Shown in pieces: positions 6,723 through 60,736 of a DNA stretch of 64,000 bases (position 1 is its first letter; each line of letters opens with the position of its first letter). The DNA comes from an uncultured Candidatus Saccharibacteria bacterium (GTDB lineage: Bacteria; Patescibacteriota; Minisyncoccia; 2-02-FULL-40-12; GWA2-44-9): NCBI GenBank assembly GCA_964479835.1, contig CAYZRE010000002.1, positions 24,987 through 88,986 of the forward strand, given 5' to 3'. A model generated the notes under the pieces. That model ran no database searches and was not told the DNA's origin. It saw nothing but the letters and a program-made list of their open reading frames with translations. The translations under genes were made by a program, and so were the position numbers.

Positions 6723-7493
6723 ATGCCCGCAGACCCCTATACAACCCTTGGAGTAAGCAAAAGCGCCTCGCACGACGAGATAAAGAAGGCGTACCGCAAG
6801 CTCGCGCACCAACACCACCCCGATAAAAAGGGTGGCGATGAGGCACGGTTCAAGGATGTGAACGAGGCGTATCAAATTCTGGGCGATACAGAAAAAAAGG
6901 CGCGGTATGACCAGTTCGGACATGCCGGCTCGCAAGGTGGATTTGGCGGTGCACAGGGCGGGTATCAGGATTTTAATTTTGATTTCGGCGGGCAGGGCGG
7001 GGGATTCGAAAATATTTTTGATATGTTTACGGGGGGCGGATTCGGTGCGGCTCGTCAAAGGCCCGAAAAAGGTGAGGATTTGCATTTGAGTATTCAGGTC
7101 AGCGCAAAAGACTTAGGGAAACAGAAGGTGTACGAATTCGAAGCTTTTGTTGCCTGCGATGACTGCTCCGGTACCGGAGCAAAAGATGCTAAGCTTCGGG
7201 TGTGTACGGACTGCAAGGGCCAGGGTCGTGTCCAGCAGGCAGTTCGCACGCCGCTGGGCACATTCGCCCAAGTTGTCGCGTGCCGCACCTGCGGTGGCGA
7301 TGGAGAGGTTGCCGAGCACACCTGCGCGCATTGCCATGGCGTCGGTCGCAATAAGGCAAAGCGAAAACTGGAACTACACATCCCTGCGCACATCAATGAC
7401 CAGTATCTGATTGCATTTCCGATTGCGGGCAATGCCGGCCTCGGTGGAGTGCCGGCGGGCGACTTGCTGGTGACTATCCGAGTAGGGAAGTAG
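6723..7493 (+). CDS. dnaJ: co-chaperone DnaJ, truncated form
   Basis: J domain with HPD, a Gly/Phe-rich linker, four CxxCxG zinc-finger repeats and CTD I. The protein ends after CTD I at 256 aa, lacking CTD II and the dimerisation region. Confidence 0.8.
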
Positions 7494-7518
7494 TCCGTTG
7501 ACATCGTAAGGAGGAGCC

Positions 7519-8199
7519 ATGACAGTAATGGTGTCGTACCAAGAATGGACGACGCGATACATGGATGAACTGCACCAAGCAGGTGCGACGAGAGAAGATG
7601 CAGCGGTCGCCGTGTTGCTCGGGTGGGACATCCTGCGGACACATCAGGCGTGCTACGGTGTCGAGAGTACGACGCCGGTGCATTTCTCAGCTATCCCCTC
7701 AACCATCACAACAAACCACATTGCACACGTCGCAGCCTGCTGCAGTGGTCCACGGTTCGGCGGCGACGAATTCTATGTCGTGTATGTACCGGGTCAGGCA
7801 AAGTATGTCGCCGATTGGCAGCATTTCACCAGCGGTCGGGTTTCCGCAGGCATATTTTTGGAAGGTATCGCGGTCCACGAAGTCCGCCACCGCGTACAGA
7901 ATCGAGAAACTGCAACACTACGCATGTTCGAGCGTGATAAACTAGCCGGCCAATGGCCCGACGAACACACTGCGGTTGTCGCAATGAACATGCACGAACA
8001 GTTCTTCGAAGATGAGCGACATGACCGGGCCGCCGGGATGTCTCCGGAGGATCTCGCCTGGCTCTACTCGGAGGAAGAATACGACGCAGCTGTTGTGGAG
8101 CGACTGTTCATCCACCGGCACGACACAGTCGTCACTGACGACCAGTTGGCCTCTTTCGTCAGAATGAATTGCCCGCGTATGCCGTCTCGCCGCTCGTAA
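7519..8199 (+). CDS. hypothetical protein with HExxH motif (putative zincin-like metallopeptidase fold)
   Basis: strong RBS AAGGAGGAG 6 nt upstream of the ATG; contains AVHEVRHR (HExxH); no further family assignment possible. Confidence 0.5.
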   Translation: MTVMVSYQEWTTRYMDELHQAGATREDAAVAVLLGWDILRTHQACYGVESTTPVHFSAIPSTITTNHIAHVAACCSGPRFGGDEFYVVYVPGQAKYVADWQHFTSGRVSAGIFLEGIAVHEVRHRVQNRETATLRMFERDKLAGQWPDEHTAVVAMNMHEQFFEDERHDRAAGMSPEDLAWLYSEEEYDAAVVERLFIHRHDTVVTDDQLASFVRMNCPRMPSRRS

Positions 8200-8243
8200 T
8201 CGGGCGGCGTTTTCTTTATGACTCGGTGGCGTATACTAAGGGT

Positions 8244-8786
8244 ATGGATTCGATTCTGGCACGCATACCGTCATGGCCCGGCACGGCAGTCTTGTCCGAG
8301 GCCCTACGGGACCCTAAAGGGCTCTTCGCGATGCTTGCGGTCGTTATGTTGGTGCTGTATGGGTTGTCAGTGGGGCGAACCAGAGCGCTAGTGTCGCTCT
8401 TGAGTATTTATGTCGCGTACATGCTTGCCGTGCTGTTCCCGTATTTGCCCTGGATAGCGGAGAAGCTACCGGAACAGTATCGGTCGCTGGGCGCCGTGGG
8501 ATTGTTTATTGTTTTATACGCCCTCACATTCATTATCCTGTCGCAATCGATGCTCAGAGGTCGCCTGACCCTGGGCGAAATATCGCTCTGGCAAGTTTTA
8601 GTTATTTCGGTTGTGCAAATAGGACTCCTGGCGAGCATATGTCTGTCACTGATTTCCGTGGAGAGAGGCGAGCAGCTTATCGGGCCGATGTACCCTTGGC
8701 TCGGAGGTTCTCGCACGCTATGGGCGTGGGCGGTTGCCTCGCTTCTCATTATGCCGTTTATGCGGTCCCGTAGCCGACGGGACTGA
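8244..8786 (+). CDS. hypothetical membrane protein
   Basis: about five hydrophobic helices. The ORF track starts at 8169, overlapping the upstream gene; the ATG at 8244 (MDSIL) with an AAGGGT RBS is preferred. Confidence 0.4.
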   Translation: MDSILARIPSWPGTAVLSEALRDPKGLFAMLAVVMLVLYGLSVGRTRALVSLLSIYVAYMLAVLFPYLPWIAEKLPEQYRSLGAVGLFIVLYALTFIILSQSMLRGRLTLGEISLWQVLVISVVQIGLLASICLSLISVERGEQLIGPMYPWLGGSRTLWAWAVASLLIMPFMRSRSRRD

Positions 8787-8929
8787 GCTCCGTTCCCTAC
8801 CGCCCCGATATCCCGACTCGGTATCGCTGTCTCCGTCTTCTGACGGAGCATCTCGTTCTCGCGCCGTCGCGCTCCGAAGCCCCTCGCTGGAATACCGGGG
8901 CGGTCTGTCGCTTGCAAGCAAGATTAATT

Positions 8930-8954
8930 AAACGGCTCATCAAATGAGCCGTTT
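8930..8954. repeat. REP-like palindrome copy 1 (AAACGGCTCA-tcaaa-TGAGCCGTTT)
   Basis: perfect 10-bp inverted repeat; one of at least six copies of the same palindrome in the window. Confidence 0.6.
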
Positions 8955-9130
8955 ATCCCGTCTGCGCGAACGCCTGCGCTTGACCGAGTTCAAGGCGCAA
9001 GCGAGGACCGAACCGAGCCGTACTTATGATACGGCGAGGGAGGACCACAGTGAGCAACGAAGAAATCGGGTAAGCCCGCAGGGTGGGAACGCCACTCATT
9101 CCATGGTGGCGCCCACGCAGGCGTTCGCTG

Positions 9131-9697
9131 CTATTTCGCGCGCTCTACATACTGACCGGTCTCAGTATTCACGACAATGCTATCGCCTTCGTTGACGAAC
9201 AGCGGGACATTAATGGATGCGCCGCAATCAAGTTTCACCTGCTTACTGCCGCCGGTCGCGGTGTCACCGCGGATGCCGGGGGGAGCTTCGACGACTTCGT
9301 AGGTCATTTTGATGGGCAGAGTGATGGTGATGACCTTGTCGTTCCATGACAGTGCCTCGAGCACGGTGTTGGGTTTGAGAAACTTAGCCTGGTCCCCGAT
9401 GAGTTCTTCGGTGAGGAGAAATCGTTTCGAGGGGTCTTTCGGGTCGGCGAACCAGAACTCATCGCGATGGTTGTAGAGAAATTTCACTTCACGGCGGGCA
9501 ACATCCGCTTCTTCGAACACATCGGACTGTGCGAGATTGCGCTCAAGAACTTTGCCGTTGAGCAGATTGCGCATTCGAGTTTGCACAACCGGGCGCCGTT
9601 GCTGCATTTTCAAATGGTGTGTTTCCAAGACCATGAACGGCTGGTCTTCGTAGATGAAATAGGTTTTCGGGTGTAAATCGTTGACTCCGAGAGACAT
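9131..9697 (-). CDS. efp: elongation factor P
   Basis: 188 aa, EF-P three-domain pattern (KMQQRRPVVQTRMRNL, C-terminal OB folds). Confidence 0.9.
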   Translation of the reverse strand: MSLGVNDLHPKTYFIYEDQPFMVLETHHLKMQQRRPVVQTRMRNLLNGKVLERNLAQSDVFEEADVARREVKFLYNHRDEFWFADPKDPSKRFLLTEELIGDQAKFLKPNTVLEALSWNDKVITITLPIKMTYEVVEAPPGIRGDTATGGSKQVKLDCGASINVPLFVNEGDSIVVNTETGQYVERAK

Positions 9698-36926: not shown

Positions 36927-37274
36927 CTAGTTCTCGAGCGCGTCGATTTTCGCGGCGAGAATAAAATCGTTTTTACTCAAGCCGTTGATTGCGTGAGTCG
37001 TAAGCGTCACCTCTAAAAATCCCCAGCCGAAGCGGATATCGGGGTGGTGACCTTCAGCCTCGGCTAGCGCGCCGATGGCATTGACCCGCTTGAGAGCTTC
37101 TGCAAAATTCTTGAATTTCCACTTCTTGAAGATGTGGTCTCCGTCGACAACCTTCCAGCCGGAAATCTCCTTCAAGTATTCAGTAATCTCATCAGGCGTA
37201 GCCTTCGGCGTCTGGCCGTTGCACGCCTCACATGTGTTCTTCGCGAGTTCACTCATTAATTTGAATTGTATCAC
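36927..37274 (-). CDS. pterin-4a-carbinolamine dehydratase (PCD/DCoH)
   Basis: EGHHPDI motif and PCD-like length; apparent GTG start. Confidence 0.8.
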   Translation of the reverse strand: MIQFKLMSELAKNTCEACNGQTPKATPDEITEYLKEISGWKVVDGDHIFKKWKFKNFAEALKRVNAIGALAEAEGHHPDIRFGWGFLEVTLTTHAINGLSKNDFILAAKIDALEN

Positions 37275-37305
37275 AAACTCCGGCTTCGACCCCGACGAGG
37301 TCCGA

Positions 37306-37423
37306 GCGCGTAGCGGCCATACCGTTCAGCAGACGGCTTCGGAGGCCGACGGGCCGAGAACGCAGAAGCCCCGCCAGCAAGGCGGGGACTTCGTGTCTGT
37401 CGAATGGTATGGCCGCTACGCGC
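37306..37423. repeat. structured ~120-nt intergenic element, copy A (candidate ncRNA or regulatory RNA)
   Basis: 18-bp terminal helix GCGCGTAGCGGCCATACC/GGTATGGCCGCTACGCGC, inner 5-bp CAGAC/GTCTG, 11-bp hairpin GAAGCCCCGCC-agcaa-GGCGGGG(a)CTTC, cUUCGg-containing arm; a near-identical copy lies at 40308-40428. Confidence 0.5.
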
Positions 37424-37434
37424 GACCCCCATGA

Positions 37435-37692
37435 CTAGGAGAGGTGCTTCGAGACGAGCTTGGTCATCTCAAACATATTGACGACCGCTTTGCCACCAAA
37501 GACGGCCTTCAAGTTGGCGTCCGCATTGATGTTGCGCTTGTTCGCCGGGTCCTGAAGATTGTTCTTCTTGATGTAGACCCACAGTTTCTTGACGACCTCC
37601 GAGCGGGGCATAGGACCCGCACCAACTACTTCAGCTAACTCCGGGCTGACCTGCATCGGCTTCATAAACGCTGAATTGGCTTGTTGTGCCAT
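37435..37692 (-). CDS. SWIB/MDM2-domain protein
   Basis: 85 aa; pattern ...LKAVFGG...VNMFEMTKLVSKHL typical of SWIB domains. Confidence 0.7.
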   Translation of the reverse strand: MAQQANSAFMKPMQVSPELAEVVGAGPMPRSEVVKKLWVYIKKNNLQDPANKRNINADANLKAVFGGKAVVNMFEMTKLVSKHLS

Positions 37693-37768: not shown

Positions 37769-38029
37769 CTATTTCTTCTTATAGATGACGCCACGGCCCG
37801 CAGAGCCAACCTGAACAATCTTGCCCTCCTTCTCCAGCTCGTCCAGATACCGCGTAGCGGTGGCATCGGATACCCCCAACGCCGTCTGCACCTGGTCGTT
37901 GAACACCTCAGTTCTGCCGTCAAACAGCGCCATCACCCGCTTGCGCGGTGGGACGCTCCCCGCCCCCGCACGCATGCCCGCCCAATACCCCGCCCCGAAA
38001 CCGACGAGTAAAAATATGAACCATGTCAT
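37769..38029 (-). CDS. small membrane-anchored protein with C-terminal winged-helix-like segment
   Basis: N-terminal TM helix; C-terminal ATRYLDELEKEGKIVQVGSAGRGVIY resembles a wHTH; preceded by GGAGGGGAGAGTAG. Confidence 0.45.
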   Translation of the reverse strand: MTWFIFLLVGFGAGYWAGMRAGAGSVPPRKRVMALFDGRTEVFNDQVQTALGVSDATATRYLDELEKEGKIVQVGSAGRGVIYKKK

Positions 38030-38058
38030 GCCTCCATGCTACTCTCCCCTCCTTAAAA

Positions 38059-38089
38059 CACAAACGGCTCATTTAATGAGCCGTTTGTG
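38059..38089. repeat. REP-like palindrome copy 2 (CACAAACGGCTCA-tttaa-TGAGCCGTTTGTG)
   Basis: 13-bp perfect inverted repeat between convergently terminated minus-strand genes. Confidence 0.6.
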
Positions 38090-39579: not shown

Positions 39580-39610
39580 AAAAAAAGACCGAGGGGTGGG
39601 TTCCTCGGTC
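39580..39610 (-). terminator. intrinsic terminator (GACCGAGG/CCTCGGTC + T7)
   Basis: 8-bp stem followed by T7 on the minus strand, downstream of the gene ending at 39624. Confidence 0.55.
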
Positions 39611-39623
39611 GAGGTCGATACGG

Positions 39624-40220
39624 TTACTGCAGGGGTGCGGCCGCCAAATCATGCATGAGGCGGAGCTCGCTCATCTGAATGTCGTACTCGGTGGTAAACC
39701 GCTCCATCAGACGGTCGCCCAGTATGACCCTCAGGAGTTGCTTGAGATGCCAGCACAACCCATCGAATAGCCACCGTTGAGCCTCGAAAATTCCGATAGC
39801 GGACAGGCGCTCAATTTCATCGGACTTCTCTTCGCAGAAGGCGCGCAAGGCGCAGACGATTGCCTCATCGCGCTCGCGGTTATGTGCCTCATGCGGCAAG
39901 ATGGTCCGGAAGATGTTCACCACGCGAGCGATAGTGGCGGTGTCTTCAAAGAGCGCACGAACCTTGGAAGCTTCTTCCGGCATCACGATATGCGGCAGTT
40001 CGGTCGGTCCCAGCGTGTAGGGAATCACCCTGCCCCAGAGCCGAATCACATCCAAGAGCAACCTCCCCTGGTATGGGTCCAGCTCCGGCATCAGTTTTGT
40101 GAACACATTCAGATTGCCAACGAGCCAGCCTGCTAGGCACGCCCGCTTCCCGGGAGCACCGCCGTCCTGACTTGTCATCAGTACCTGAAAGAATTCGAGC
40201 TGCCTTAATCCTCCGCCCAT
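39624..40220 (-). CDS. hypothetical protein
   Basis: 198 aa, helical, no family recognised. Confidence 0.45.
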   Translation of the reverse strand: MGGGLRQLEFFQVLMTSQDGGAPGKRACLAGWLVGNLNVFTKLMPELDPYQGRLLLDVIRLWGRVIPYTLGPTELPHIVMPEEASKVRALFEDTATIARVVNIFRTILPHEAHNRERDEAIVCALRAFCEEKSDEIERLSAIGIFEAQRWLFDGLCWHLKQLLRVILGDRLMERFTTEYDIQMSELRLMHDLAAAPLQ

Positions 40221-40275
40221 AGCGCCTCCTCATGTAACGACACCCCCAACTCTACTCTCCCGCATCTCTCTCCGC

Positions 40276-40299
40276 AAACGGCTCATTATGTGAGCCGTT
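40276..40299. repeat. REP-like palindrome copy 3 (AAACGGCTCA-ttatg-TGAGCCGTT)
   Basis: same palindrome family, followed by CTTTTG. Confidence 0.55.
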
Positions 40300-40307
40300 C
40301 TTTTGAG

Positions 40308-40428
40308 GAGCGGCGCGGCCATGCCATTCAGCAGACCGCTTCGGAGGACGACTGGCCCGAGAACGCAGAAGCCCCGCCAGCAAGGCGGGGCTTCGTGTCT
40401 GTCCAGTGGTATGGCCGCGGAGCTCGAC
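40308..40428. repeat. structured ~120-nt intergenic element, copy B
   Basis: about 85 percent identical to copy A, with the terminal helix preserved through a wobble and a compensatory pair (CGCGGCCATGCC/GGTATGGCCGCG) and the identical inner 11-bp hairpin GAAGCCCCGCC-agcaa-GGCGGGGCTTC. Confidence 0.5.
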
Positions 40429-40436
40429 ACGAACAG

Positions 40437-40604
40437 CTAGCCGAGAAAGGCGAATAACTTATAGATTAGGAATGCCGGCCACACGAGAGCCTTGAGGAAA
40501 CCCACAGCGACCGACTCAAACCCAATCGATTGCTGGTAGAAATACACCGCTGCCCCGATAAATCCGAGAAAGTACACGCCCCCTCCGGTAGCTTCATTTC
40601 TCAT
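40437..40604 (-). CDS. tiny two-TM membrane protein
   Basis: 55 aa from the ATG at 40604 (MRNEATGGGVYFLGF...). The ORF track's longer version overlaps the upstream gene. Confidence 0.3.
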   Translation of the reverse strand: MRNEATGGGVYFLGFIGAAVYFYQQSIGFESVAVGFLKALVWPAFLIYKLFAFLG

Positions 40605-40614
40605 GTTCGTATGA

Positions 40615-40824
40615 TTAATTAATAAACCAGAATGGGTTGCCGAATCGGAGCTTGTTGAGCAAATCAAATGTCGGCGACTGGTCGGTGGCCGCTGACGGGT
40701 CACCATTGCCCCACGCAACGAGAATGTTTGCCTCCCCTTTTTCGTAGTACCCCATCACCGCCGATACATACGCGGCGCCCAACAGTACCAGTAGCCATTT
40801 CAACTTCCTTGATTTGCGCCTCAT
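40615..40824 (-). CDS. small single-TM membrane protein
   Basis: 69 aa, preceded by GCGGGGGAGTAGA about 12 nt upstream of the ATG. Confidence 0.35.
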   Translation of the reverse strand: MRRKSRKLKWLLVLLGAAYVSAVMGYYEKGEANILVAWGNGDPSAATDQSPTFDLLNKLRFGNPFWFIN

Positions 40825-40857
40825 GTCCCCATTCTACTCCCCCGCCTCCCTCCCCGC

Positions 40858-40881
40858 AAACGGCTCACCGATGAGCCGTTT
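40858..40881. repeat. REP-like palindrome copy 4 (AAACGGCTCA-ccga-TGAGCCGTTT) plus adjacent half-copy at 40889-40900
   Basis: 10-bp perfect inverted repeat, with an extra ATGAGCCGTTTA half immediately after. Confidence 0.6.
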
Positions 40882-41370: not shown

Positions 41371-41910
41371 TCAGGGCTGGAATAATTCTTCGGGCATCAG
41401 ACGCACCTCACGCACCCCCGAAAATTGCTTCGCCGTGTTTTCGATCTGCGCCCGTAAGATGCTCACAAAACATGAACCGCCACCCGTGCGATTGTCGGGG
41501 TCATTGAATGTCAGCGTCAGAACACCGCCAGTCAGCGATGCCGCAGTAAGGGTGACGCGCTTAAGTGGAAGTTCGGAGACCATGCCCTGGGCGCTTTCGG
41601 CTGATGTGGGTTTGGTTATCAGGAGAAGCCGAATCGTGTCCTGGATAGGGGTATTCGTGAACGGAATTTCACGGGTAGCGGGCATCGAACCGCCGGTACT
41701 GCACATGATATTTCCGGACGCATCCTTATCGAGCTCGGGATTGTAGAAGAAAAGCTTCACGCTCCGCATCGCAACCGGAGATGACGACGGTACCACACTC
41801 GGAATCAGTGCACTCGGAAGCCCGCTATAATATCCCAAAGCGATTGCGACGGCAATCGCAATCACAACAAGTACTCCCGCCATCTTTATTTGCTTTGAGA
41901 TTCGCTTCAT
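41371..41910 (-). CDS. GerMN-domain lipoprotein-like protein
   Basis: N-terminal TM/signal, LFFYNPEL...LTLTFNDP pattern typical of GerMN domains. Confidence 0.55.
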   Translation of the reverse strand: MKRISKQIKMAGVLVVIAIAVAIALGYYSGLPSALIPSVVPSSSPVAMRSVKLFFYNPELDKDASGNIMCSTGGSMPATREIPFTNTPIQDTIRLLLITKPTSAESAQGMVSELPLKRVTLTAASLTGGVLTLTFNDPDNRTGGGSCFVSILRAQIENTAKQFSGVREVRLMPEELFQP

Positions 41911-42008
41911 ACCCCAATGTTACTCTCCCACCTTCCTCCCCGCAAACGGCTTCCGCAAAAGAAAAACCGGCAGGCGGAGGCGCCTGCCGGTCCAAACGTT
42001 GCGAAATT

Positions 42009-42326
42009 CTACTTCTGCTTGTCGATGGTCCAGATGTAGCCGGCGGATGTCAGGTCGATGACCTTCCGGGCGCGCGACCGACCGTCGTCGTACTCGGCGA
42101 AGAGCGAGTGCTCTCCCACCTCGTATCTGACGTTGCACTCGCGTTGCGGGGTGGCACGGCAGGTCTCCTCGTCGCCGTCCACCGAGAACACGAGCGGGTC
42201 GGCCGTGTTGTTGATGAACCTGATCAGCCCCGTGCTCTGGGCCTGCACCGGCGGCGGCTGTACCGCGAACCCCGCCATCAGCGCCAGCAGACCAATCGAC
42301 AACACCATCAAGACTGCCTTTCTCAT
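42009..42326 (-). CDS. small secreted hypothetical protein
   Basis: signal peptide MRKAVLMVLSIGLLALMAGFAVQPPPVQA; RBS AAAGGAGG. Confidence 0.5.
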   Translation of the reverse strand: MRKAVLMVLSIGLLALMAGFAVQPPPVQAQSTGLIRFINNTADPLVFSVDGDEETCRATPQRECNVRYEVGEHSLFAEYDDGRSRARKVIDLTSAGYIWTIDKQK

Positions 42327-42409
42327 ACGACCTCCTTTGTTACTGCGAGTTCACACTATAACACACTAATTCCCTCCCCGCAAACCGACCATTTTCCAAA
42401 AAGCAGCGG

Positions 42410-42961
42410 CTATTTCTGATTGATAGCTAGAATTTCGTTAACGCGCTTGAGAACTAGATCGCCATCTAACATCTCGCGTCCTTTAATGCGAAGTAATGGA
42501 AGGTTAGCCGACTCAAGAATACGCTGAACCTCAATATCGCGTTGGATTCTATCTGGCCGCTCATGTGAAGGGTCATCTAGCTCAATCGCTAGTACCGTGT
42601 GGAGACTATTTTTCTCACACAATACGTAATCAACTGACTTTTCGTCGATATGCCGAAACGCACCAAACCAGCTCTGGCCCTTAATCTTGTGCTCAACAAT
42701 CGATGGCAAGTGGATTTGCGGGAATACCAAAAAACGGTCGCCGATTATCCGCGTAAGAAGGCGAAAGAACTCCTGCTCTGTATGCGTCATAACAGAAGCT
42801 TTTCTCCCGTAGAGATATTTATACGGCTGTGCCTTTTGTGTCTTTCTACGAAATAGGCCTACCAGCACCACGAGCACGATAAGGCCAAGAATAATCGGCC
42901 AAAACGGCTTCACGAACGTGAAGAACGCATTCACTATTTGCCAAAAATCGAGATTGATCAT
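42410..42961 (-). CDS. DUF2726-like (NERD / PD-(D/E)XK-related) membrane-anchored protein
   Basis: N-terminal TM, then YVLCEKNSLHTVLAIELDDPSH core typical of DUF2726; start overlaps the RM gene stop (ATGA); AT-rich codon usage. Confidence 0.55.
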   Translation of the reverse strand: MINLDFWQIVNAFFTFVKPFWPIILGLIVLVVLVGLFRRKTQKAQPYKYLYGRKASVMTHTEQEFFRLLTRIIGDRFLVFPQIHLPSIVEHKIKGQSWFGAFRHIDEKSVDYVLCEKNSLHTVLAIELDDPSHERPDRIQRDIEVQRILESANLPLLRIKGREMLDGDLVLKRVNEILAINQK

Positions 42962-45900
42962 TTTATTTTGTCGATTTCTTCCATGATACGGTCGGTTTCG
43001 GTGAGCGCAACAATAATTTTTTGATAATGTGAGATATCATCAAATGACAATTTCATACCACGTCGATCTTTCAACCACTTCTGAGCTGGCAAGTAGCTAC
43101 CCATAACATACCCAAACGCTTCTTCGGATATATTTTGAAAACTTTGCGTTTCATTAATAAATACTTCACCCTTCCTGAATATAGGGAACTTCGGACCAAC
43201 GATGTTACTGCCGAGTGCTGGAAACTTGGATGTGTAGTTACCGATCTCGGGATGTTCTAGTAGATGATAGAGGCGCAGGTCTCTGCCTTTTTGGACGAGC
43301 TTCAGAAATGTCTCCTTATTTGACGGGTACGGAATACGCGGGAAGTCCGTCTTCAGGAATTCTTGGTATTTTTTTCGATAATTTAGTGAGTATAGCGTCG
43401 CATAGATGTAGTCAAGGATATCTTCTGACGATATGGCACCGACAACATTTTCTATTTTGCTCACTATTTCTTTCCTTAGATTAGAGGTTCGTGTATTATC
43501 GTCAGAGTAAAGATATAGCGGGAAGACGTAGCCAGCCTCCTTAGTTCGATTCGTTAGGAGGCACATGTCAATTAGACCCCTTCCAATGAAGGCGTGGTTA
43601 AATTCATTGACTGCCAGCTGGCGAGGAACGAGAAGTGCGATGTTGTCTCGTTCGAGAAGATGCTTCATAATCGCATACCGGGGACGAGCAATGAAACCCT
43701 TATTTTCGTGGGTATAGTATATCCATCTAACATCGAATGGACGGTAAGATATTTGCCTCAAATGAGATTCGGAGAAATTTCTTTCTACATCGTTCTTTGC
43801 GTTCGGCAGCTGCCAGCTACTAGTATCTTTCGGAATGCCGTACTTCTGGCGCAATGCGACAACATCCAAACTCTTAAAATCTAGAACACGCTGTTGGAGC
43901 ATTTCTTTTCTTTGATCGATGGCCAACTCATCCCTGAACGTTGCAATTCCAACACTGGACTCTAAGAATAATTCATCGAGACTGAATCCTCGTCTGTATT
44001 CTTCTCTGCCCTCCATGTTCTTATCCACAAAGAAATACATCTGGTCATCGAGTGACACCTCTTGCCAGTTTGGTTTATAAGAATCTAGGGCAGTAAATTT
44101 CGAACGACGAGAGCCGAATAAGTCGTCATGATATACTCTGGCCGGTTGATTGGCCTTCTTGTCTCCTGTTTTCACGGCAATCAAGATTGCTACTCCCTGT
44201 TGAATATCAAAGACGTTTTCATCTTTGTTGCCATCGGGAGAAAGTTCCTCCTTTTTTAGATTGCCATGGAGATCGAGTACATAGATTGAATCGAAAGTTT
44301 TTGTCAGATGCCATCGCATACCACGAAACGTTGGGTTATCAATGTAGCCGTGAGCTGTGATCATGGCTACGATGCCCGTACCAGTTTTCTCAATAAAACT
44401 CTCTGCTAAACGGATAAACTTAACATAATCATCGTTCAGCCATTTTGAATTCCGCTCTTGTAGCTTCATTCTCCCGCCAGGCTCTACTTTATACACATCA
44501 TGCCCCGTATACTGCTTATTTTGAGACTCACCTTTATATGGCGGATTGCCAATAACGACCATAACCGGCAACTCTTCTTTTACTCGTGAAGCACCAATAG
44601 ACTCTTCGGTAAGCGAACGCATCAGTCCGAATTCAAGCTGTGGTTGCACGGCGCCCGCGGGTTCCAAAGAATTTGTAAGATACACACCGATTCTGTCGTT
44701 TGGTTCGGCACCTGTTTCAGTCAGAACCATGGATAACTTGAGGTGTGCGACAATATAACTTGCGACGAGAAGCTCGAATCCGTGCATTCGTGGAAGTAAG
44801 TGTTCATTTACATAACTTGGCCATTGACCTTTTTGACTCTCAAATGACTCGTATATCTTGTGGATAGTCTCATTCAAGAATGTTCCGGTACCAACAGCGG
44901 GGTCCAAAATCTGGACACGGTGAATCTGTTCCTTAACTTTTTTAAACTGGCCTGTTTTATTAGTCTCCTGAATAGAAATCTCATGCTCAACCTTAGAAGT
45001 GTCTGCCAGTCCTTTTGAGAGACCAAAATCGCGACGAAGAATCTCGTCCACCGATCGAACGATGAAACGTACAATAGGCGGGCGAGTATAAAATACGCCA
45101 CGATCTAACTTCTGCCCTTTATCGTATTCTCCCAAAAAGTCTTCATAGAAATGAACAACGGGATCAAGTGCTTCGGGGTCCTTACCCCACAAACCTACTT
45201 GCCTGAAGCGATCCTCCATAATTCCCTTGACATCAGCTGCGGTAAATATTAAAGATAAATCGGAAACGATATAATCAAGTCTTGAGTCAAACTCTGGGCC
45301 AGAAATATGATTAAAGAACTGCCTTAAAAAGGGGTTAGAGCGTGGCACAAGGCCTTGTGCTTCCTGTCTTGAAAAATTCCCTGGCGTTTTATCGTAGAAG
45401 CGAGCTACAAATAGGCCATATACTAATGTTTGGGCATACATATCCGCAAATTGCTCGATCGTTAGGTCGTGTATAAGAAGACGCTTAAAAACGTCGAATT
45501 GTTCAAGAAGCGATCGACTTTTCTCTCCACCTTCTTTGCTATAGATGACAATATTTTCTCGAAGACGACGCCCTCGACCACCCATGATTCGAGACAATTT
45601 TTCTGCAGAGGTTATCGTTTGAGCTCCGAGTTCAAGAAACGCTGAAAGTTCGCGGACTAGTAACTCATATGCCTCCGCGTGAAATACCAATCCCTCTCCA
45701 TGACGAGATGCGATAATGATTTTTTCTCCATAGGGTTCGCCGTCTCGGAAAAATCGAAATTCAATGTAGTTCGTCAATATAAGCTTCGGATATCCTAGAT
45801 ACCTCTCGAGTTGTTCCGATGTCTGGACTTTATCCAAGTTTACAGCGAGGTCCTTCGTTTCAATGTAGGCAAGAGGAACTGCCCCTTTTTTAACAATAAA

Positions 45901-46071
45901 GTCGGGCGCTCCAAACTGAGAACGCTTTGGCTCATTAATTATCTGGCAGTTCTCGCATGTAGTCCCCAGAAACTCTTCAAAGGGTGCGCGATAAGAATGC
46001 TCACCAGCCTCGCCAGTTGCAAACTTGCCGCCGATTTTTCCGAGATACTCCGCGACTTTATGTGCAGTCAC
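42958..46071 (-). CDS. Type IIG restriction-modification enzyme (fused PD-ExK endonuclease, gamma-class N6-adenine MTase and TRD; MmeI-like)
   Basis: 1037 aa; N-terminal PD-(D/E)XK (GAPDFIV...AYIETKDL), MTase motif I ILDPAVGTGTFL and motif IV VIGNPPYKG in gamma order, long C-terminal TRD; apparent GTG start; AT-rich. Confidence 0.75.
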   Translation of the reverse strand: MTAHKVAEYLGKIGGKFATGEAGEHSYRAPFEEFLGTTCENCQIINEPKRSQFGAPDFIVKKGAVPLAYIETKDLAVNLDKVQTSEQLERYLGYPKLILTNYIEFRFFRDGEPYGEKIIIASRHGEGLVFHAEAYELLVRELSAFLELGAQTITSAEKLSRIMGGRGRRLRENIVIYSKEGGEKSRSLLEQFDVFKRLLIHDLTIEQFADMYAQTLVYGLFVARFYDKTPGNFSRQEAQGLVPRSNPFLRQFFNHISGPEFDSRLDYIVSDLSLIFTAADVKGIMEDRFRQVGLWGKDPEALDPVVHFYEDFLGEYDKGQKLDRGVFYTRPPIVRFIVRSVDEILRRDFGLSKGLADTSKVEHEISIQETNKTGQFKKVKEQIHRVQILDPAVGTGTFLNETIHKIYESFESQKGQWPSYVNEHLLPRMHGFELLVASYIVAHLKLSMVLTETGAEPNDRIGVYLTNSLEPAGAVQPQLEFGLMRSLTEESIGASRVKEELPVMVVIGNPPYKGESQNKQYTGHDVYKVEPGGRMKLQERNSKWLNDDYVKFIRLAESFIEKTGTGIVAMITAHGYIDNPTFRGMRWHLTKTFDSIYVLDLHGNLKKEELSPDGNKDENVFDIQQGVAILIAVKTGDKKANQPARVYHDDLFGSRRSKFTALDSYKPNWQEVSLDDQMYFFVDKNMEGREEYRRGFSLDELFLESSVGIATFRDELAIDQRKEMLQQRVLDFKSLDVVALRQKYGIPKDTSSWQLPNAKNDVERNFSESHLRQISYRPFDVRWIYYTHENKGFIARPRYAIMKHLLERDNIALLVPRQLAVNEFNHAFIGRGLIDMCLLTNRTKEAGYVFPLYLYSDDNTRTSNLRKEIVSKIENVVGAISSEDILDYIYATLYSLNYRKKYQEFLKTDFPRIPYPSNKETFLKLVQKGRDLRLYHLLEHPEIGNYTSKFPALGSNIVGPKFPIFRKGEVFINETQSFQNISEEAFGYVMGSYLPAQKWLKDRRGMKLSFDDISHYQKIIVALTETDRIMEEIDKIK

Positions 46072-46076
46072 AATTC

Positions 46077-46110
46077 TTCAAATCTACCAAAAAACCGGCC
46101 TTGTGGCCAG
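46077..46110. repeat. ~34-nt repeated upstream element, copy 1 (minus-strand reading CTGGCCACAAGGCCGGTTTTTTGGTAGATTTGAA)
   Basis: near-identical to copy 2 at 46601-46632; lies immediately 5' of the RM start codon. Confidence 0.5.
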
Positions 46111-46119
46111 TTCTCGGTG

Positions 46120-46143
46120 AACGGCTCACCGAATGAGCCGTTT
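46120..46143. repeat. REP-like palindrome copy 5 (AACGGCTCA-ccgaa-TGAGCCGTT)
   Basis: same family as the other copies, between the RM gene start and the upstream gene's stop. Confidence 0.55.
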
Positions 46144-46156
46144 GATCCCGTGGTAT

Positions 46157-46591
46157 TCAGACGAGTTGCGGAATTTTCAGTAGCTTGCGTATCTCATTGA
46201 GGTCATCATCATTTCTAAGGGCATTATTGCCCGGACCTAGGCCGTTCGAGAGTCTGATGAGCCGCCGCGCAGCGTCCGCAACATTTCTGTCGTCGTTCTT
46301 TGTACGAAAAACCAGTTGTTTTCTCGATGCTTCTAAATCGCATGAATTTCTACGAAGATCGTCCGAGCATTTTTGATAGCGCTCCGGCCAAAAAGAATTT
46401 TCACTAGGCGGAATAGGGTTTGTTATTACATTCGCGTAATATTTCAATTCGTTATCGATTTTCCCAATCACTCCCTTATATTCTTGCAGGGGCACTAGAA
46501 CGAACCTTTGGATTGTTTCGCCTATCAGAAAAATAACCACGCCAGATATGACGGTCTGAAAAACTGTACTTCCGAGAAGGGTCGCGATCAT
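46157..46591 (-). CDS. hypothetical protein with N-terminal TM helix
   Basis: The ORF track starts at TTG 46612 inside the repeated element; the ATG at 46591 (MIATLLGS...) is preferred; no family recognised. Confidence 0.4.
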   Translation of the reverse strand: MIATLLGSTVFQTVISGVVIFLIGETIQRFVLVPLQEYKGVIGKIDNELKYYANVITNPIPPSENSFWPERYQKCSDDLRRNSCDLEASRKQLVFRTKNDDRNVADAARRLIRLSNGLGPGNNALRNDDDLNEIRKLLKIPQLV

Positions 46592-46600
46592 GTCAGGCGA

Positions 46601-46632
46601 CAAATCTAACAAAAAACCGGCCCCGTGGCCAG
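46601..46632. repeat. ~34-nt repeated upstream element, copy 2
   Basis: minus-strand reading CTGGCCACGGGGCCGGTTTTTTGTTAGATTTG, about 5 mismatches to copy 1. Confidence 0.5.
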
Positions 46633-46670
46633 TCGTGGAGTAGGGTCGGTAATGTAGTAGGGCAGCTCGT

Positions 46671-47327
46671 TTAAACTAGCGTTGCCTGGGAACCACCCAA
46701 TAGGACTTGATTAATGAGATCGTGATACAGCCTACTAGCTAGTGTAGTATTGAAGTCGGGATCATTGGAGGCTGTTAGCAATAGCAGTTTTTCTCTATAT
46801 AGGCCCTGTGACTTTAAAAAGGCGATTTCCGCAGAGTCTCCTAAAATCATTGATTCTATAACTTTGAAGGCAGGGTCCAGAAAAAACTCGGCCACTTTAT
46901 CCTCCAGCTGTTCTTGCTTAGTTTGCTTATTGAGATGGACGAATTGAAAATTCTTTTTGTATCCGATAAAACATTTCCCACCAAGATTGATAATTTCGGG
47001 GCCAAGCTTTTCGCCAGCATCACAGGCAAGAGCGTGAACAAATTTCCCCTGCATTATTTTGGCATTTTCTCCAACCCGAATCAGTATTTCTCTGTTATAT
47101 CCACACAGATGATCTGGGCCCCCGTGTCCGTTAAAAAAAACAATCTGGGGATCATTCTCTGATATAGCGGTCTCAATATTTACTCGAGTGACCGAAGGGC
47201 CCGATAATTCTATAACTACTGTCTCGGGCTGTTTTTTAGCCAGCTCAACCACTCGGTCACACCAGGCACCTATATACTCAGTGGGCCGATCGTGAGCCGG
47301 GTTTGTAAAAACCAGTATGCGGCTCAC
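46671..47327 (-). CDS. caspase-like (C14-type His/Cys dyad) fold protein, candidate peptidase
   Basis: 218 aa; hydrophobic first strand RILVFTNP, then FFNGHGG (metacaspase YSGHG-like) and HALACDAGEK (D-x-C-x-x-G-like Cys motif) in the order expected for a caspase/metacaspase dyad; GTG start. Confidence 0.45.
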   Translation of the reverse strand: MSRILVFTNPAHDRPTEYIGAWCDRVVELAKKQPETVVIELSGPSVTRVNIETAISENDPQIVFFNGHGGPDHLCGYNREILIRVGENAKIMQGKFVHALACDAGEKLGPEIINLGGKCFIGYKKNFQFVHLNKQTKQEQLEDKVAEFFLDPAFKVIESMILGDSAEIAFLKSQGLYREKLLLLTASNDPDFNTTLASRLYHDLINQVLLGGSQATLV

Positions 47328-47581
47328 TGGGTGACAAGATTAGGGTTAGCAATCTTAGCAACAATGCCAGTTCTTAGGGCGCGTAGAAATTCCATTTCTG
47401 TCTCGATATAGTCCAAGCCAATAGTAGACTCATTGGTAACATGTTGAATCATCTCATCTCGAGAGATATTGGCCGCCTGGTCTCCGCTGGAAAAGTGAAG
47501 ATTTCGAGACAAAATTTCTAGTCGAGCTAAGATTGTTTCTTTTACTACCGGATCGGCTGATTTTTGCACAACTTTTTTCAT
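47324..47581 (-). CDS. hypothetical small protein
   Basis: 85 aa, start overlaps upstream stop, stop overlaps downstream start (operon coupling). Confidence 0.4.
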   Translation of the reverse strand: MKKVVQKSADPVVKETILARLEILSRNLHFSSGDQAANISRDEMIQHVTNESTIGLDYIETEMEFLRALRTGIVAKIANPNLVTQ

Positions 47582-47584
47582 ATT

Positions 47585-47782
47585 CTAGATTAGCTGTAAG
47601 CGCTCAAGCTCGCTAAGGATTTTTTCAGAAAGTTCTGTTTTTGCCTTCACTTCAATAAATGCAACATCCCAAGTAATGGGTTTTTGTATTCCGTCTAACT
47701 CAATCACCAAAATAATCTCATTTCGGAGACTTAATGGAATGTTGGAGTAAACTCTTAGAAACCGTTCCCTGAGATCATCCAT
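47585..47782 (-). CDS. hypothetical small protein (first gene of island operon)
   Basis: 65 aa; sits 26 nt downstream of a perfect promoter. Confidence 0.4.
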   Translation of the reverse strand: MDDLRERFLRVYSNIPLSLRNEIILVIELDGIQKPITWDVAFIEVKAKTELSEKILSELERLQLI

Positions 47783-47808
47783 AAATAGTACTTTGTAATT
47801 GGGGAAGG

Positions 47809-47837
47809 ATTATACGCTATTTACTAGGGGGAATCAA
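47809..47837 (-). promoter_or_regulatory. sigma70-type promoter TTGATT-N17-TATAAT driving the island operon
   Basis: read on the minus strand; -10 TATAAT about 27 nt upstream of the ATG at 47782. Confidence 0.5.
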
Positions 47838-48068
47838 GATGGGATGAGCCTCTATATACTAAAATTTACCATTTTTGTGCCAGCAGGGACAAGGGGACAA
47901 CTAAGATGCGCGTGGCCATTTGCGAGCGCACCACCCGGGCCCTGGCATGCTCGCTTGCTGTACCAAAGCCGAGCGAACAGCGATGGCGACGTTACGCACC
48001 GGGAGCGGACAGGGCTTGGGTGGTAAGCGAGAACAGAAACCCCGCCGATTGGCGGGGTTTCTTCTGCG

Positions 48069-49347: not shown

Positions 49348-50091
49348 CTACTCTTTTTTGGCTTTCTTCTCTTTCTTAATTTTCTTTGCCACGCGTGCCT
49401 CCTGCTCGGGGACGGCAATCTTGGCAACAAGCGCAAAGTGATCGGCAAGAATCGTGGCCGCTTCCTTCATCGCCTCTTCGGGCTGGACGGCGCCGTCGGT
49501 TTCGATTTCCATCGTGACCTTGTTGAAGTCGATGCGCTGTCCGACGCGGACATCTTCGATGCTGAAGTTCACCAGACGAACCGGTGAGTAGGCCGCATCA
49601 ATGGCGATAACGCCGATGGGCAGTTTCTCTTTCTGGCGCATCTCCACGGAGACATACCCGCGGCCCTTTTGTACCGTGAGCTCCATGTCCAGCTCGGCTT
49701 TCTTGTCGGTGAGCGTGCAGATGTGCTGGTCGCGGTTGATGAGCTCTACATCAGAGGTGAGTTGGATGTCGTCGGCGGTGACTTTGCTCTCGCCCTTGGC
49801 GATGAGTTTGACGGTGATGGGCTCATTGGAGAAACAGCGGAAGCGGAGCTTCTTGAGGTTGAGGATGATTTCAACGATATCCTCCTGTACCCCCGAGATG
49901 GCACCAAACTCGTGCTCTACGCCCTTAATCTTGATGGAGGTGACCGCAGACCCCTCCAGAGACGACAACAGCACGCGCCGGAGCGGGTTTGCTACGGTGG
50001 CGCCGTATCCGGGCATCAGAGGACCGATTTCGAACACGGCCTTGTTGCCCTCTTTCTTTACTACTTTTACTTCTTCGGGAAGCTGTATCAT
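49348..50091 (-). CDS. rpoA: DNA-directed RNA polymerase alpha subunit (NTD only, no alpha-CTD)
   Basis: alpha NTD dimerisation/assembly region recognisable; the protein ends at 247 aa with a Lys-rich tail, no alpha-CTD. Confidence 0.8.
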   Translation of the reverse strand: MIQLPEEVKVVKKEGNKAVFEIGPLMPGYGATVANPLRRVLLSSLEGSAVTSIKIKGVEHEFGAISGVQEDIVEIILNLKKLRFRCFSNEPITVKLIAKGESKVTADDIQLTSDVELINRDQHICTLTDKKAELDMELTVQKGRGYVSVEMRQKEKLPIGVIAIDAAYSPVRLVNFSIEDVRVGQRIDFNKVTMEIETDGAVQPEEAMKEAATILADHFALVAKIAVPEQEARVAKKIKKEKKAKKE

Positions 50092-60466: not shown

Positions 60467-60538
60467 GGGACCTATGGTGAAATGGTATCACAACACTCTG
60501 TGGCAGTGTGGTCACGGGTTCGATCCCCGTTAGGTCCC
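60467..60538 (+). tRNA. tRNA-His (anticodon GTG)
   Basis: manual cloverleaf: G-1, acceptor GGACCTA/TAGGTCC, D-arm GTGA-aatggta-TCAC, anticodon arm ACACT-ctGTGgc-AGTGT, T-arm ACGGG-TTCGATC-CCCGT, discriminator C; CCA not encoded; TGTTATAAT extended -10 about 25 nt upstream. Confidence 0.8.
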
Positions 60539-60593
60539 CAAATACTAAAGCACCCCCGCCTGCCGAGGGTGCTTTAGTATCCTGGAGATGCTG

Positions 60594-60608
60594 AACGGGG
60601 ATCGAACC
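60594..60608 (-). repeat. inverted partial copy of tRNA-His T-arm (GGTTCGATCCCCGTT, 15/15)
   Basis: exact 15-nt match to tRNA-His positions 60516-60530 in opposite orientation; flanks do not fold into a complete tRNA. Confidence 0.5.
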
Positions 60609-60711: not shown

Positions 60712-60736
60712 AAACGGCTCACCGAATGAGCCGTTT
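60712..60736. repeat. REP-like palindrome copy 6 (AAACGGCTCA-ccgaa-TGAGCCGTTT)
   Basis: identical core to copies 4 and 5. Confidence 0.6.

Follow-up and report, generated by a model that had tools for sequence, protein, structure and literature searches.

A previously uncatalogued Y-shaped element at gene ends in a chromosome segment of a Patescibacterium

Short repeats that fold into stable structures are found between genes in several bacterial groups. ERIC/IRU, Ypal, SMAG, RUP and BOX are structured intergenic repeats that are restricted to particular species and are thought to be co-transcribed, affecting the 3' ends or the stability of mRNAs. Miniature inverted-repeat transposable elements (MITEs), such as the Correia element of Neisseria, may carry terminator or promoter functions and RNase III sites. 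A REPIN is composed of two inverted copies of a conserved REP sequence (20-40 nt, with a GTAG-type motif on the 5' side) and a variable loop, and it is mobilised by RAYT. In the Patescibacteria (candidate phyla radiation), most of which are uncultivated, the genome is very small and its genes are densely packed; non-coding elements, signals for transcription and the dynamics of repeats are, to our knowledge, almost unknown in these bacteria. We hereby describe a Y-shaped element of about 105-120 nt that occurs three times (copies A, B and C) in a 64-kb stretch of Patescibacterial DNA (contig CAYZRE010000002.1 of assembly GCA_964479835.1), and we compare it with these systems. "The window" denotes this whole stretch, and positions are counted from its first letter.

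Copy B, on which the analysis was centred, lies at 40308-40428 on the + strand, with a covariance-model core at 40315-40418. Its inverted-repeat arms (40308-40336 and 40397-40425) are 60 nt apart, and imperfect outer pairing reaches 40308/40425. The fold, which is common to copies A and B, is a three-way junction made of a long closing stem (P1) and two hairpins (P2 and P3), the helices being joined by single nucleotides. In copy B the 5' arm of P1 (40315-40337, + strand) pairs with the 3' arm (40396-40418, + strand) through 15 bp, an A.C mismatch and then about 7 bp. P2 (40338-40366, + strand) begins with a GCUUC / GAA-C-GC helix and continues with a 3x2 internal loop (5'-GGA/5'-GA), an apical helix of 4 bp and the loop GAC(U)G; the geometry of the internal loop, as modelled, probably fits tandem sheared G.A pairs. 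The apical P2 hairpin of this copy contains one A.C mismatch and an extra U. P3 (40368-40394, + strand) is a perfect, GC-rich hairpin of 11 bp with arms GAAGCCCCGCC and GGCGGGGCTTC and the loop AGCAA. As RNA, the + strand of copy B folds with -76.4 kcal/mol (z = -5.5 against 200 dinucleotide shuffles).

Copy A (37306-37423, + strand) is in direct orientation, exactly 3002 nt upstream of copy B, to which it is 91% identical across 105 nt (blastn within the window, E = 2e-30). The similarity between the two is bounded by the base of the stem, the flanking genes being excluded, and includes two single-base indels. The closing stem of copy A is 29 bp long, a bulged A interrupts its P3, and its fold is even more stable (-93.9 kcal/mol, z = -10.3). 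An initial annotation of this DNA had reported a structured element at the place of copy B, the same as copy A, with an inner hairpin that is perfect in B and carries a one-base bulge in A, and all of this agrees with what we find. It had also counted two copies 3 kb apart; the distance is right and the count is incomplete. A profile search, followed by a covariance model built from A and B only (R1), brought up copy C at 8799-8904 on the - strand, with 54.2 bits and E ~4e-9. The same model gives 113.3 bits to copy B and 120.8 bits to copy A. A second model, built from all three copies (R2), found no further copy in the window.

Copy C is diverged, being 59% identical to A overall, and it keeps the three-way junction and all four helices. 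Conservation is distributed unevenly along the element. The best-conserved part of the family is a core of 34 columns (24-57, comprising P2 and the junction), in which C is 82% identical to A or B; the unpaired columns are likewise 82% identical between C and A, whereas the P1 columns of C are only 39% identical to those of A or B and yet still paired. In the alignment of the three sequences, which was fitted to the covariance model, standard pairs occupy 94% of the cells, and 15 of the 42 pairs are altered on both sides, P1 contributing 10 of them, apical P2 another 2 and P3 the remaining 3; the corresponding number is 5.0 +/- 1.9 in column shuffles and 0-3 in slid-partner controls. Copies C and A have in common the position of the A.C mismatch in P1 and the same bulged A in P3; because this bulge is present also in the diverged copy, it is ancestral and was lost in B. 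No shuffled sequence folds as well as A, B or C on the strand of the element (z = -4.3 to -10.3). On sequence evidence, a conserved multi-helix architecture is thus supported for the family, and the similarity extends well beyond the simple GC-rich hairpins to which, as the initial annotation had considered, it might have been confined.

These data bear on the simplest alternative, namely that no family exists and that an ordinary terminator hairpin with chance or local complementarity is seen, A and B being the outcome of one local duplication and C a coincidence. GC-rich hairpins are in fact common, and P3 with its tail resembles the rpsI terminator of this lineage, which is described below. 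Moreover, a partial match (D) located just after rpsI in a related locus (L005:6405-6499; nhmmer E = 2.6e-4) reaches only 11-12 bits with the covariance models, and for this reason it is treated as terminator-level similarity or as a decayed relative. Coincidence, however, does not account for a copy C that is recovered by a model built without it, with the conserved core, equal helix lengths, a mismatch at the same place and the bulged A, nor for the stability of every copy relative to its shuffles, nor for an A-B similarity that stops at the element without including the flanking genes. This alternative is largely refuted and we regard it as very improbable.

All genes around copies A and B are on the - strand. 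The gene upstream of B (40437-40607, - strand) encodes a hydrophobic membrane protein of 55 aa, and 8-11 nt separate its stop codon (40437-40439) from the base of the element; the downstream gene (39624-40220, - strand) encodes a 198-aa protein that has no Pfam match and has orthologues in related Patescibacteria. Copy A is located between the stop codon (37435-37437, 7-11 nt from its base) of a gene for an 85-aa SWIB-domain protein (37435-37692, - strand) and the start of the gene encoding pterin-4a-carbinolamine dehydratase. Copy C is flanked by a membrane-protein gene on the + strand (8169-8786), whose stop codon (8784-8786) is 12 nt away from the base of the element, and by efp, which is convergent to that gene. 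The distance from the stop codon to the element is thus 7-12 nt for all three copies, and each of them is antisense to the gene in question. The initial annotation had placed A and B just after the stop codons of small genes; the proximity is as described, and those stop codons belong to - strand genes, to which the element is antisense.

In copies B and C the stop codon is followed by the element and then by the palindrome, after which, in B, comes a promoter-like module of the next gene. This is the order expected for an element of a 3' untranslated region (UTR) or for a terminator. By position, the element is certainly located within the transcription unit of the upstream gene or just past it. 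The initial annotation had left it to be decided whether copy B belongs to the 3'UTR of the upstream gene or to the 5'UTR of the downstream one; since it sits between a - strand stop codon and the palindrome with the promoter-like module (40227-40300), its position assigns it to the 3' region of the 55-aa gene and not to the 5'UTR of the 198-aa gene. As a consequence of this placement, the mRNA would carry the reverse complement of the strand that folds better.

The explanation that we rank first, although tentatively, is that copy B is a member of a small, lineage-restricted and structure-constrained family of dispersed repeats, which occupies 3' intergenic gaps and would be transcribed together with the upstream gene, working there as a weak terminator, an insulator and a 3'-end structure. 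In this scheme the element would form the tail of the upstream mRNA, where, between closely spaced genes, the Y-shaped fold would terminate transcription weakly, insulate and hold off 3' exonucleases; it would act jointly with the adjacent palindromic hairpin in the case of B and C. Duplicative spread within the lineage would have generated A and B as recent copies and C as an older one. This explanation is based on the placement and the orientation of the copies, on their likeness to terminators, on their gain with respect to relatives, on the presence of other repeats in the same gaps and on the lack of independent transcription signals.

The likeness to terminators is seen when the copies are read in the direction of the adjacent upstream gene. 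In all three of them P3 is then followed by a U-containing tract (CUUCUGCGUUCUCG), the tails being UGCGUUCUCGG in A and B and AUCUCGUUCUCG in C, with 4 U in the first 8 nt. On this gene-sense strand P3 folds with -20 to -24 kcal/mol in A and B and with -12 in C, and it begins about 30-45 nt after the stop codon; it is, in other words, a stable and GC-rich hairpin placed shortly past a stop codon in the orientation of the gene, as the hairpin of an intrinsic terminator is. The terminator of rpsI, the gene for ribosomal protein S9 (48020-48065, - strand; GAAACCCCGCC-AAUC-GGCGGGGUUUC-UGUUCUCGC), was used as a comparator, and it closely resembles P3 together with the CGAGAAC junction on the gene-sense strand. 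The resemblance of P3 and its tail extends to the rpsI terminators of both the window genome and L005, which read GGCGGGG(C/U)UUCUG(CG)UUCUCG.

The distribution of the element was assessed in loci of relatives that were reached through the 198-aa protein, EF-P and SWIB (about 125 kb in total). Searches with R1 and R2, filters off, found no copy in these related Paceibacteria loci, syntenic sites included. In the window, copy C is contained in an intergenic block of 344 nt (8787-9130) together with a palindrome and a second structured segment, element X. In two relatives whose EF-P is 93% and 96% identical at the protein level, with DNA identity of about 81-83% (L050 and L051), no spacer separates the stop codon of efp from that of the convergent gene; in two others (L052 and L053) the spacer at this site is just 33-46 nt long and holds a simple hairpin. 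Since the site of C is empty in all four relatives, the simplest history is a gain in the lineage of the window. Upstream of the 198-aa gene the relatives have unrelated simple hairpins only, and after SWIB their next gene is found within about 30-180 nt. The alternatives offered by the initial annotation were a dispersed functional RNA and a mobile structured repeat. Dispersal is upheld by the three copies and by the empty site in L050, L051, L052 and L053. Signs of mobility (a transposase among the larger open reading frames of the window, conserved terminal repeats, a target-site duplication) were not found, and neither were a promoter or a terminator for an independent transcript.

No known family accounts for the element. 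At gathering thresholds, Rfam 15 identified only tRNA-His in the whole window. With the threshold relaxed to E <= 10, region 40200-40500 gave only sub-threshold matches driven by terminators, the best being rnk_pseudo (32 bits against a gathering score of 55, - strand), which is a leader containing a terminator; in region 8700-9200 nothing matched over copy C. A blastn comparison with phage and plasmid collections gave no match. Pattern scans returned chance matches only, as judged by reading, by folding or with the covariance model: two in coding DNA, as judged by direct reading, for GAGAACGCAGAAGCCCCGCC in genome contigs (one representative per species), 12 for GCTTCGGAGNNCGACN{4,5}CGAGAAC in JGI metagenome contigs and 26 for GCTTCGGAGN{8,14}CGAGAACG in IMG/VR viral contigs; because such scans need an exact match of 17-20 bases, they would miss diverged relatives. 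The covariance model found nothing among the metagenome and viral pattern matches. A description of such an element, or of such repeats in Patescibacteria, did not surface in the literature. The Y-shaped element is thus a real and previously uncatalogued family.

Several observations weigh against the co-transcribed repeat that we prefer. The strand antisense to the gene folds better as RNA in every copy (by 7.4, 7.7 and 10.4 kcal/mol across the three); DNA energy parameters favour the same strand, by just 2-5 kcal/mol. The stems on that strand contain 9 G.U cells against 1 A.C cell, and in our reading of the alignment the substitutions between A and B preserve pairing on it 4:1. The d'Aubenton-Carafa scores of the copies, computed with our own implementation, are -6, -23 and -43, the U-tract being poor, whereas the rpsI terminator obtains about +1 and a canonical one at 39587-39610 obtains +28; the tails of P3 were not called in a terminator consensus scan. 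An unpaired core as strongly conserved as this one is superfluous for a mere 3' hairpin. The ends, by contrast, are the least conserved part of the element (39% in P1 between C and A). None of the three copies is bordered by a visible target-site duplication, and among the open reading frames (ORFs) of the window of at least 150 aa we see neither a transposase nor a RAYT nor a reverse transcriptase. Finally, all statistics rest on three copies, two of which (A and B) are closely related, and so on about 2 independent lineages.

The strand asymmetry and the conserved core are better accommodated by the main competing explanation, according to which the element is a new class of structured RNA (about 105-120 nt) of Paceibacteria-type Patescibacteria, consisting of genes or processed segments that derive from the strand with the better fold (+ in A and B, - in C) and lie antisense to gene ends. 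We consider this class less likely than the repeat, but give it a substantial chance. In this scheme, the GGA/GA loop, the GAC(U)G loop and the nucleotides of the junction would bind a protein or RNA partner and the closing helix would be free to vary, while the transcript would come from an unrecognised promoter or from cleavage of an antisense transcript. A functional RNA is the explanation that accounts best for the pattern of conservation, that is, for unpaired columns that are well preserved beside a P1 that drifts and stays paired, for both-side changes spread over P1, apical P2 and P3, and for the bulged A common to A and C. The G.U pairs of P1 lie at alignment columns 9/99, 13/95 and 17/91, the last in all three copies and the other two in both B and C. 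The covariance models also score the antisense strand far higher (90-119 bits against 11-27), in line with its greater stability as RNA. The sign of the GC skew is such that mutational bias should favour wobbles on the opposite strand, and it argues, weakly, that composition does not explain the asymmetry. The wobbles, however, correspond to only about 5-7 independent events against 1-2, with a conserved A.C mismatch that favours the other strand; the asymmetry between strands is therefore suggestive of the antisense strand and not decisive.

Other observations speak against an antisense RNA. Neither a sigma-70-like promoter nor a terminator for an independent + strand transcript was found, and a comparison of the sequences upstream of A, B and C revealed no convincing shared promoter and no analogue of the module present on the - strand. 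Nothing resembling a terminator follows the element on its better-folding strand. Copy B moreover lacks the P3 bulge, and its apical P2 is disturbed by a mismatch and an insertion, as though the constraint on it were weak; the lack of homologues in the loci of relatives and in the pattern scans contrasts with the broader conservation expected of a functional RNA. The repeat co-transcribed with the upstream gene remains our first choice, and an ordinary repeat is more likely than a new RNA class.

A third explanation is that the element works as folded single-stranded DNA (ssDNA), a branched hairpin recognised on one strand for recombination, transposition or priming, like attC sites, IS200/IS605 and REP hairpins and single-strand origins. 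We judge it improbable. The spread of the element and the maintenance of complementarity in its stem would both stem from that mechanism, a similarly improbable proposal, which would fit the drift of the stem sequence with its pairing kept and the presence or absence of the element between genomes. The geometry is indeed reminiscent of attC, in that the folding strand is the complement of the coding strand of the preceding gene and the top is branched; the preference of the DNA parameters for the same strand, small as it is, goes in the same direction. On the other side, AAC...GTT R-boxes at the base of the stem, a large unpaired central spacer and a cassette array are all missing, and neither an integrase nor a Y1 transposase nor a RAYT is encoded by the larger ORFs of the window. 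From the sequence, we recognised no GTAG or TTAC cleavage motif at the borders, where target-site duplications are lacking as well.

The gaps that host the Y-shaped element host other repeated or structured inserts, namely a palindrome family, element X and element E. The REP-like palindrome near copy B (40275-40300; CAAACGGCTCA-N5-TGAGCCGTT(C)) is 7 nt from the element. The initial annotation had it follow copy B within 10 nt; the distance is correct, and the order holds on the - strand only, as on the + strand the palindrome is upstream. Read on the + strand, this hairpin, 7 nt from the element, is trailed by UUCUUUU. The palindrome AACGGCTCA-N4/5-TGAGCCGTT (23 nt) occurs six times in the window with perfect arms, whereas 0.08 copies are expected by chance, at 8931-8953, 38063-38085, 40277-40299, 40859-40880, 46120-46142 and 60713-60735. 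The copy near C (8930-8957) is 25 nt from the element, on the same side of it as in B. The palindrome is usually flanked by AAA and TTT, so that an A-run, a stem and a T-run give the shape of a bidirectional terminator. The identity of these terminator-like palindromes at six places hints at a cassette that spreads or at a site bound by a protein.

On the - strand the palindrome is immediately followed by a promoter-like module. That of the 198-aa gene (40227-40274, - strand) is composed of TTTGCGG, N15-17, GAGTAGAGT, then GAGGAGG and ATG; further occurrences are at 40809-40865 and 41895-41951, and a related form is seen at about 38030-38062 (- strand). The consensus is GAGCCGTTTG(C/T)G, N15, GAGTAG(A/C)(A/G)T, followed by a ribosome-binding site and ATG. 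These modules precede the genes starting at 40220, 40824, 41910 and 38029 and presumably function as promoters. The gene that starts at 38029 encodes a helix-turn-helix protein of 86 aa, which is possibly an autoregulator.

Some further segments are of note. Element X (8965-9128), in the same block as copy C, is a unique segment of 164 nt closed by a perfect inverted repeat of 13 bp, with a branched interior. On the other side of the membrane-protein gene next to C, an ORF of 226 aa (7519-8199, in the region 7439-8230) without a Pfam match is absent in L050, where the gap between DnaJ and the membrane-protein gene is 54 nt; by this comparison, it is another lineage-specific insertion near copy C. 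A long hairpin of 95 nt with an outer stem of 15 bp lies just past the rpsI terminator (47930-48024), and the fold of its + strand, which is antisense to rpsI, is 9 kcal/mol more stable than that of the - strand, an asymmetry like that of the Y-shaped element. Between murB and murA of L050 (L050:5295-5395) an unrelated, AT-richer Y-shaped inverted-repeat element of about 100 nt is present, built from a 17-bp stem, then an internal loop and a further 6 bp, and two small hairpins, and its 3' arm ends exactly at the start codon of murA.

The genes of the window encode DnaK, DnaJ and HrcA, EF-P, Fmt, PriA, aminoacyl-tRNA synthetases, MreB, glycosyltransferases, a cluster of ribosomal proteins with RpoA, and tRNA-His. 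Candidatus Yanofskybacteria, Paceibacterota and Patescibacteria group bacterium are among the names that the sources give to the listed homologues, and the window is a chromosome segment of a Patescibacterium similar to Paceibacteria/Yanofskybacteria. Downstream of copy A, the probable start of the pterin-4a-carbinolamine dehydratase gene (- strand, region 37254-37280) is the ATG at 37256; just 8 nt upstream of this ATG is TGATACAAT, an extended -10 sequence, which suggests a leaderless mRNA. A block of low GC content (about 42000-48000; 0.44-0.45 against about 0.54 elsewhere) encodes a DUF2726 protein and a Type ISP restriction-modification enzyme of 1037 aa and was probably acquired horizontally; at the equivalent place the relatives have a different methylase. 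RpoA (49348-50091, - strand) is 247 aa long and matches only the N-terminal and insert domains in Pfam, and for the RpoA of L005 (248 aa) likewise only those two families are on record; the C-terminal domain of the alpha subunit thus appears to be missing, as far as domain matches tell. The tRNA-His gene (60468-60539, + strand) is followed by a hairpin (region 60468-60608) and, beyond it, by a perfect inverted copy of 15 nt from the T-arm and 3' part of the tRNA at 60594-60608. The - strand of that region reads ...GGCGGTTCGATCCCCGTTCAGCATCTCCA and resembles a 3' tRNA half, with no ARAGORN or Rfam call.

Several other identities were considered for the element and discarded. A retron msr-msd is not compatible with the neighbours (SWIB, pterin dehydratase, small membrane proteins and EF-P), among which no reverse-transcriptase domain was found. 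In a hammerhead ribozyme the core CUGANGA...GAAA is expected; here CUUCGGAG ... CGAGAAC is located in the internal loop of P2 and not in the junction, and Rfam gives no match. Short resemblances to 5S rRNA (CCGA..AC.CAGAAG and GAUGGUA) are present, but RF00001 is absent even at E <= 10 and the helix lengths differ. The motifs of signal recognition particle RNA and of the kink-turn do not fit. Coding potential is contradicted by the two single-base indels between A and B and by the strongly palindromic character of the region, and a type I toxin-antitoxin system by the lack of a conserved small hydrophobic ORF on the opposite strand. The differences between A and B are not adenine-specific, unlike those expected of the template and variable repeats of a diversity-generating retroelement; TIGR arrays are tandem, whereas the Y-shaped element is dispersed. 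Copies A and B are not the att sites of an island, because the genes that they flank, for the 198-aa protein and SWIB, are resident in relatives.

The presence of structure-constrained repeats at gene ends, gained after the divergence from relatives, means that streamlined genomes still acquire and keep structured non-coding DNA. As possible terminators and insulators of this lineage, the Y-shaped element, the six-copy palindrome and the promoter-like modules are moreover concrete candidates. Were the reading from the antisense strand true, a new class of structured RNA with a clearly defined conserved core would be at hand; if the repeat reading is true, the finding is useful but ordinary.

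With respect to known systems, the element is like ERIC/IRU in being an imperfect long palindrome of about 100-130 nt that folds as RNA, is dispersed between genes near their ends and is present or absent at orthologous sites. It has no sequence similarity to ERIC/IRU, conserves an internal three-way-junction core beside variable arms, is known in three copies and resides in a reduced Patescibacterial host. Like the Correia element and other MITEs, it is short, non-coding, adjacent to genes and provided with inverted-repeat ends, and its copies are dispersed, with the site of C empty in relatives. It is set apart from the MITEs by terminal repeats that are not conserved (39% between C and A/B, against 82% in the core) and by the lack of target-site duplications; no cognate transposase is seen in the window ORFs of at least 150 aa. 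With REP and REPIN sequences it has in common a hairpin of about 100 nt in 3' intergenic gaps, for which strand-specific recognition of ssDNA is plausible; here, however, the loop region is conserved and the arms are variable, no common GTAG is found at the ends of the arms, and the window ORFs contain no RAYT/Y1_Tnp. Variable arms, a conserved interior and the missing GTAG rule out this identity.

Integron attC sites are also found right after a stop codon, with the better-folding strand complementary to the coding strand, an imperfect stem, a branched top and a structure more conserved than the sequence. The Y-shaped element differs from them by lacking R''/R' boxes (RYYYAAC / GTTRRRY), an unpaired central spacer, an integrase and an array, and by a conserved core, whereas the interiors of attC sites vary. 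It was rejected as an attC site for the lack of an AAC/GTT pair at the base of the stem and of an integrase in the window, and because copies are present only at about 8.8, 37.4 and 40.4 kb, with many intervening genes that have none. The intrinsic terminator of rpsI shares with it a GC-rich hairpin of 11 bp followed by (C/U)UUCUG..UUCUCG, just after a stop codon and oriented with the gene; in the Y-shaped element this hairpin is instead nested in an outer stem of 22-29 bp together with a second conserved hairpin, and the U-tract is interrupted and scores lower. The element thus behaves most like repeats of the ERIC, Correia and REPIN types and like intrinsic terminators, but belongs to none of them, and the combination of a conserved core with free arms is what distinguishes it from repeats defined by a transposase.

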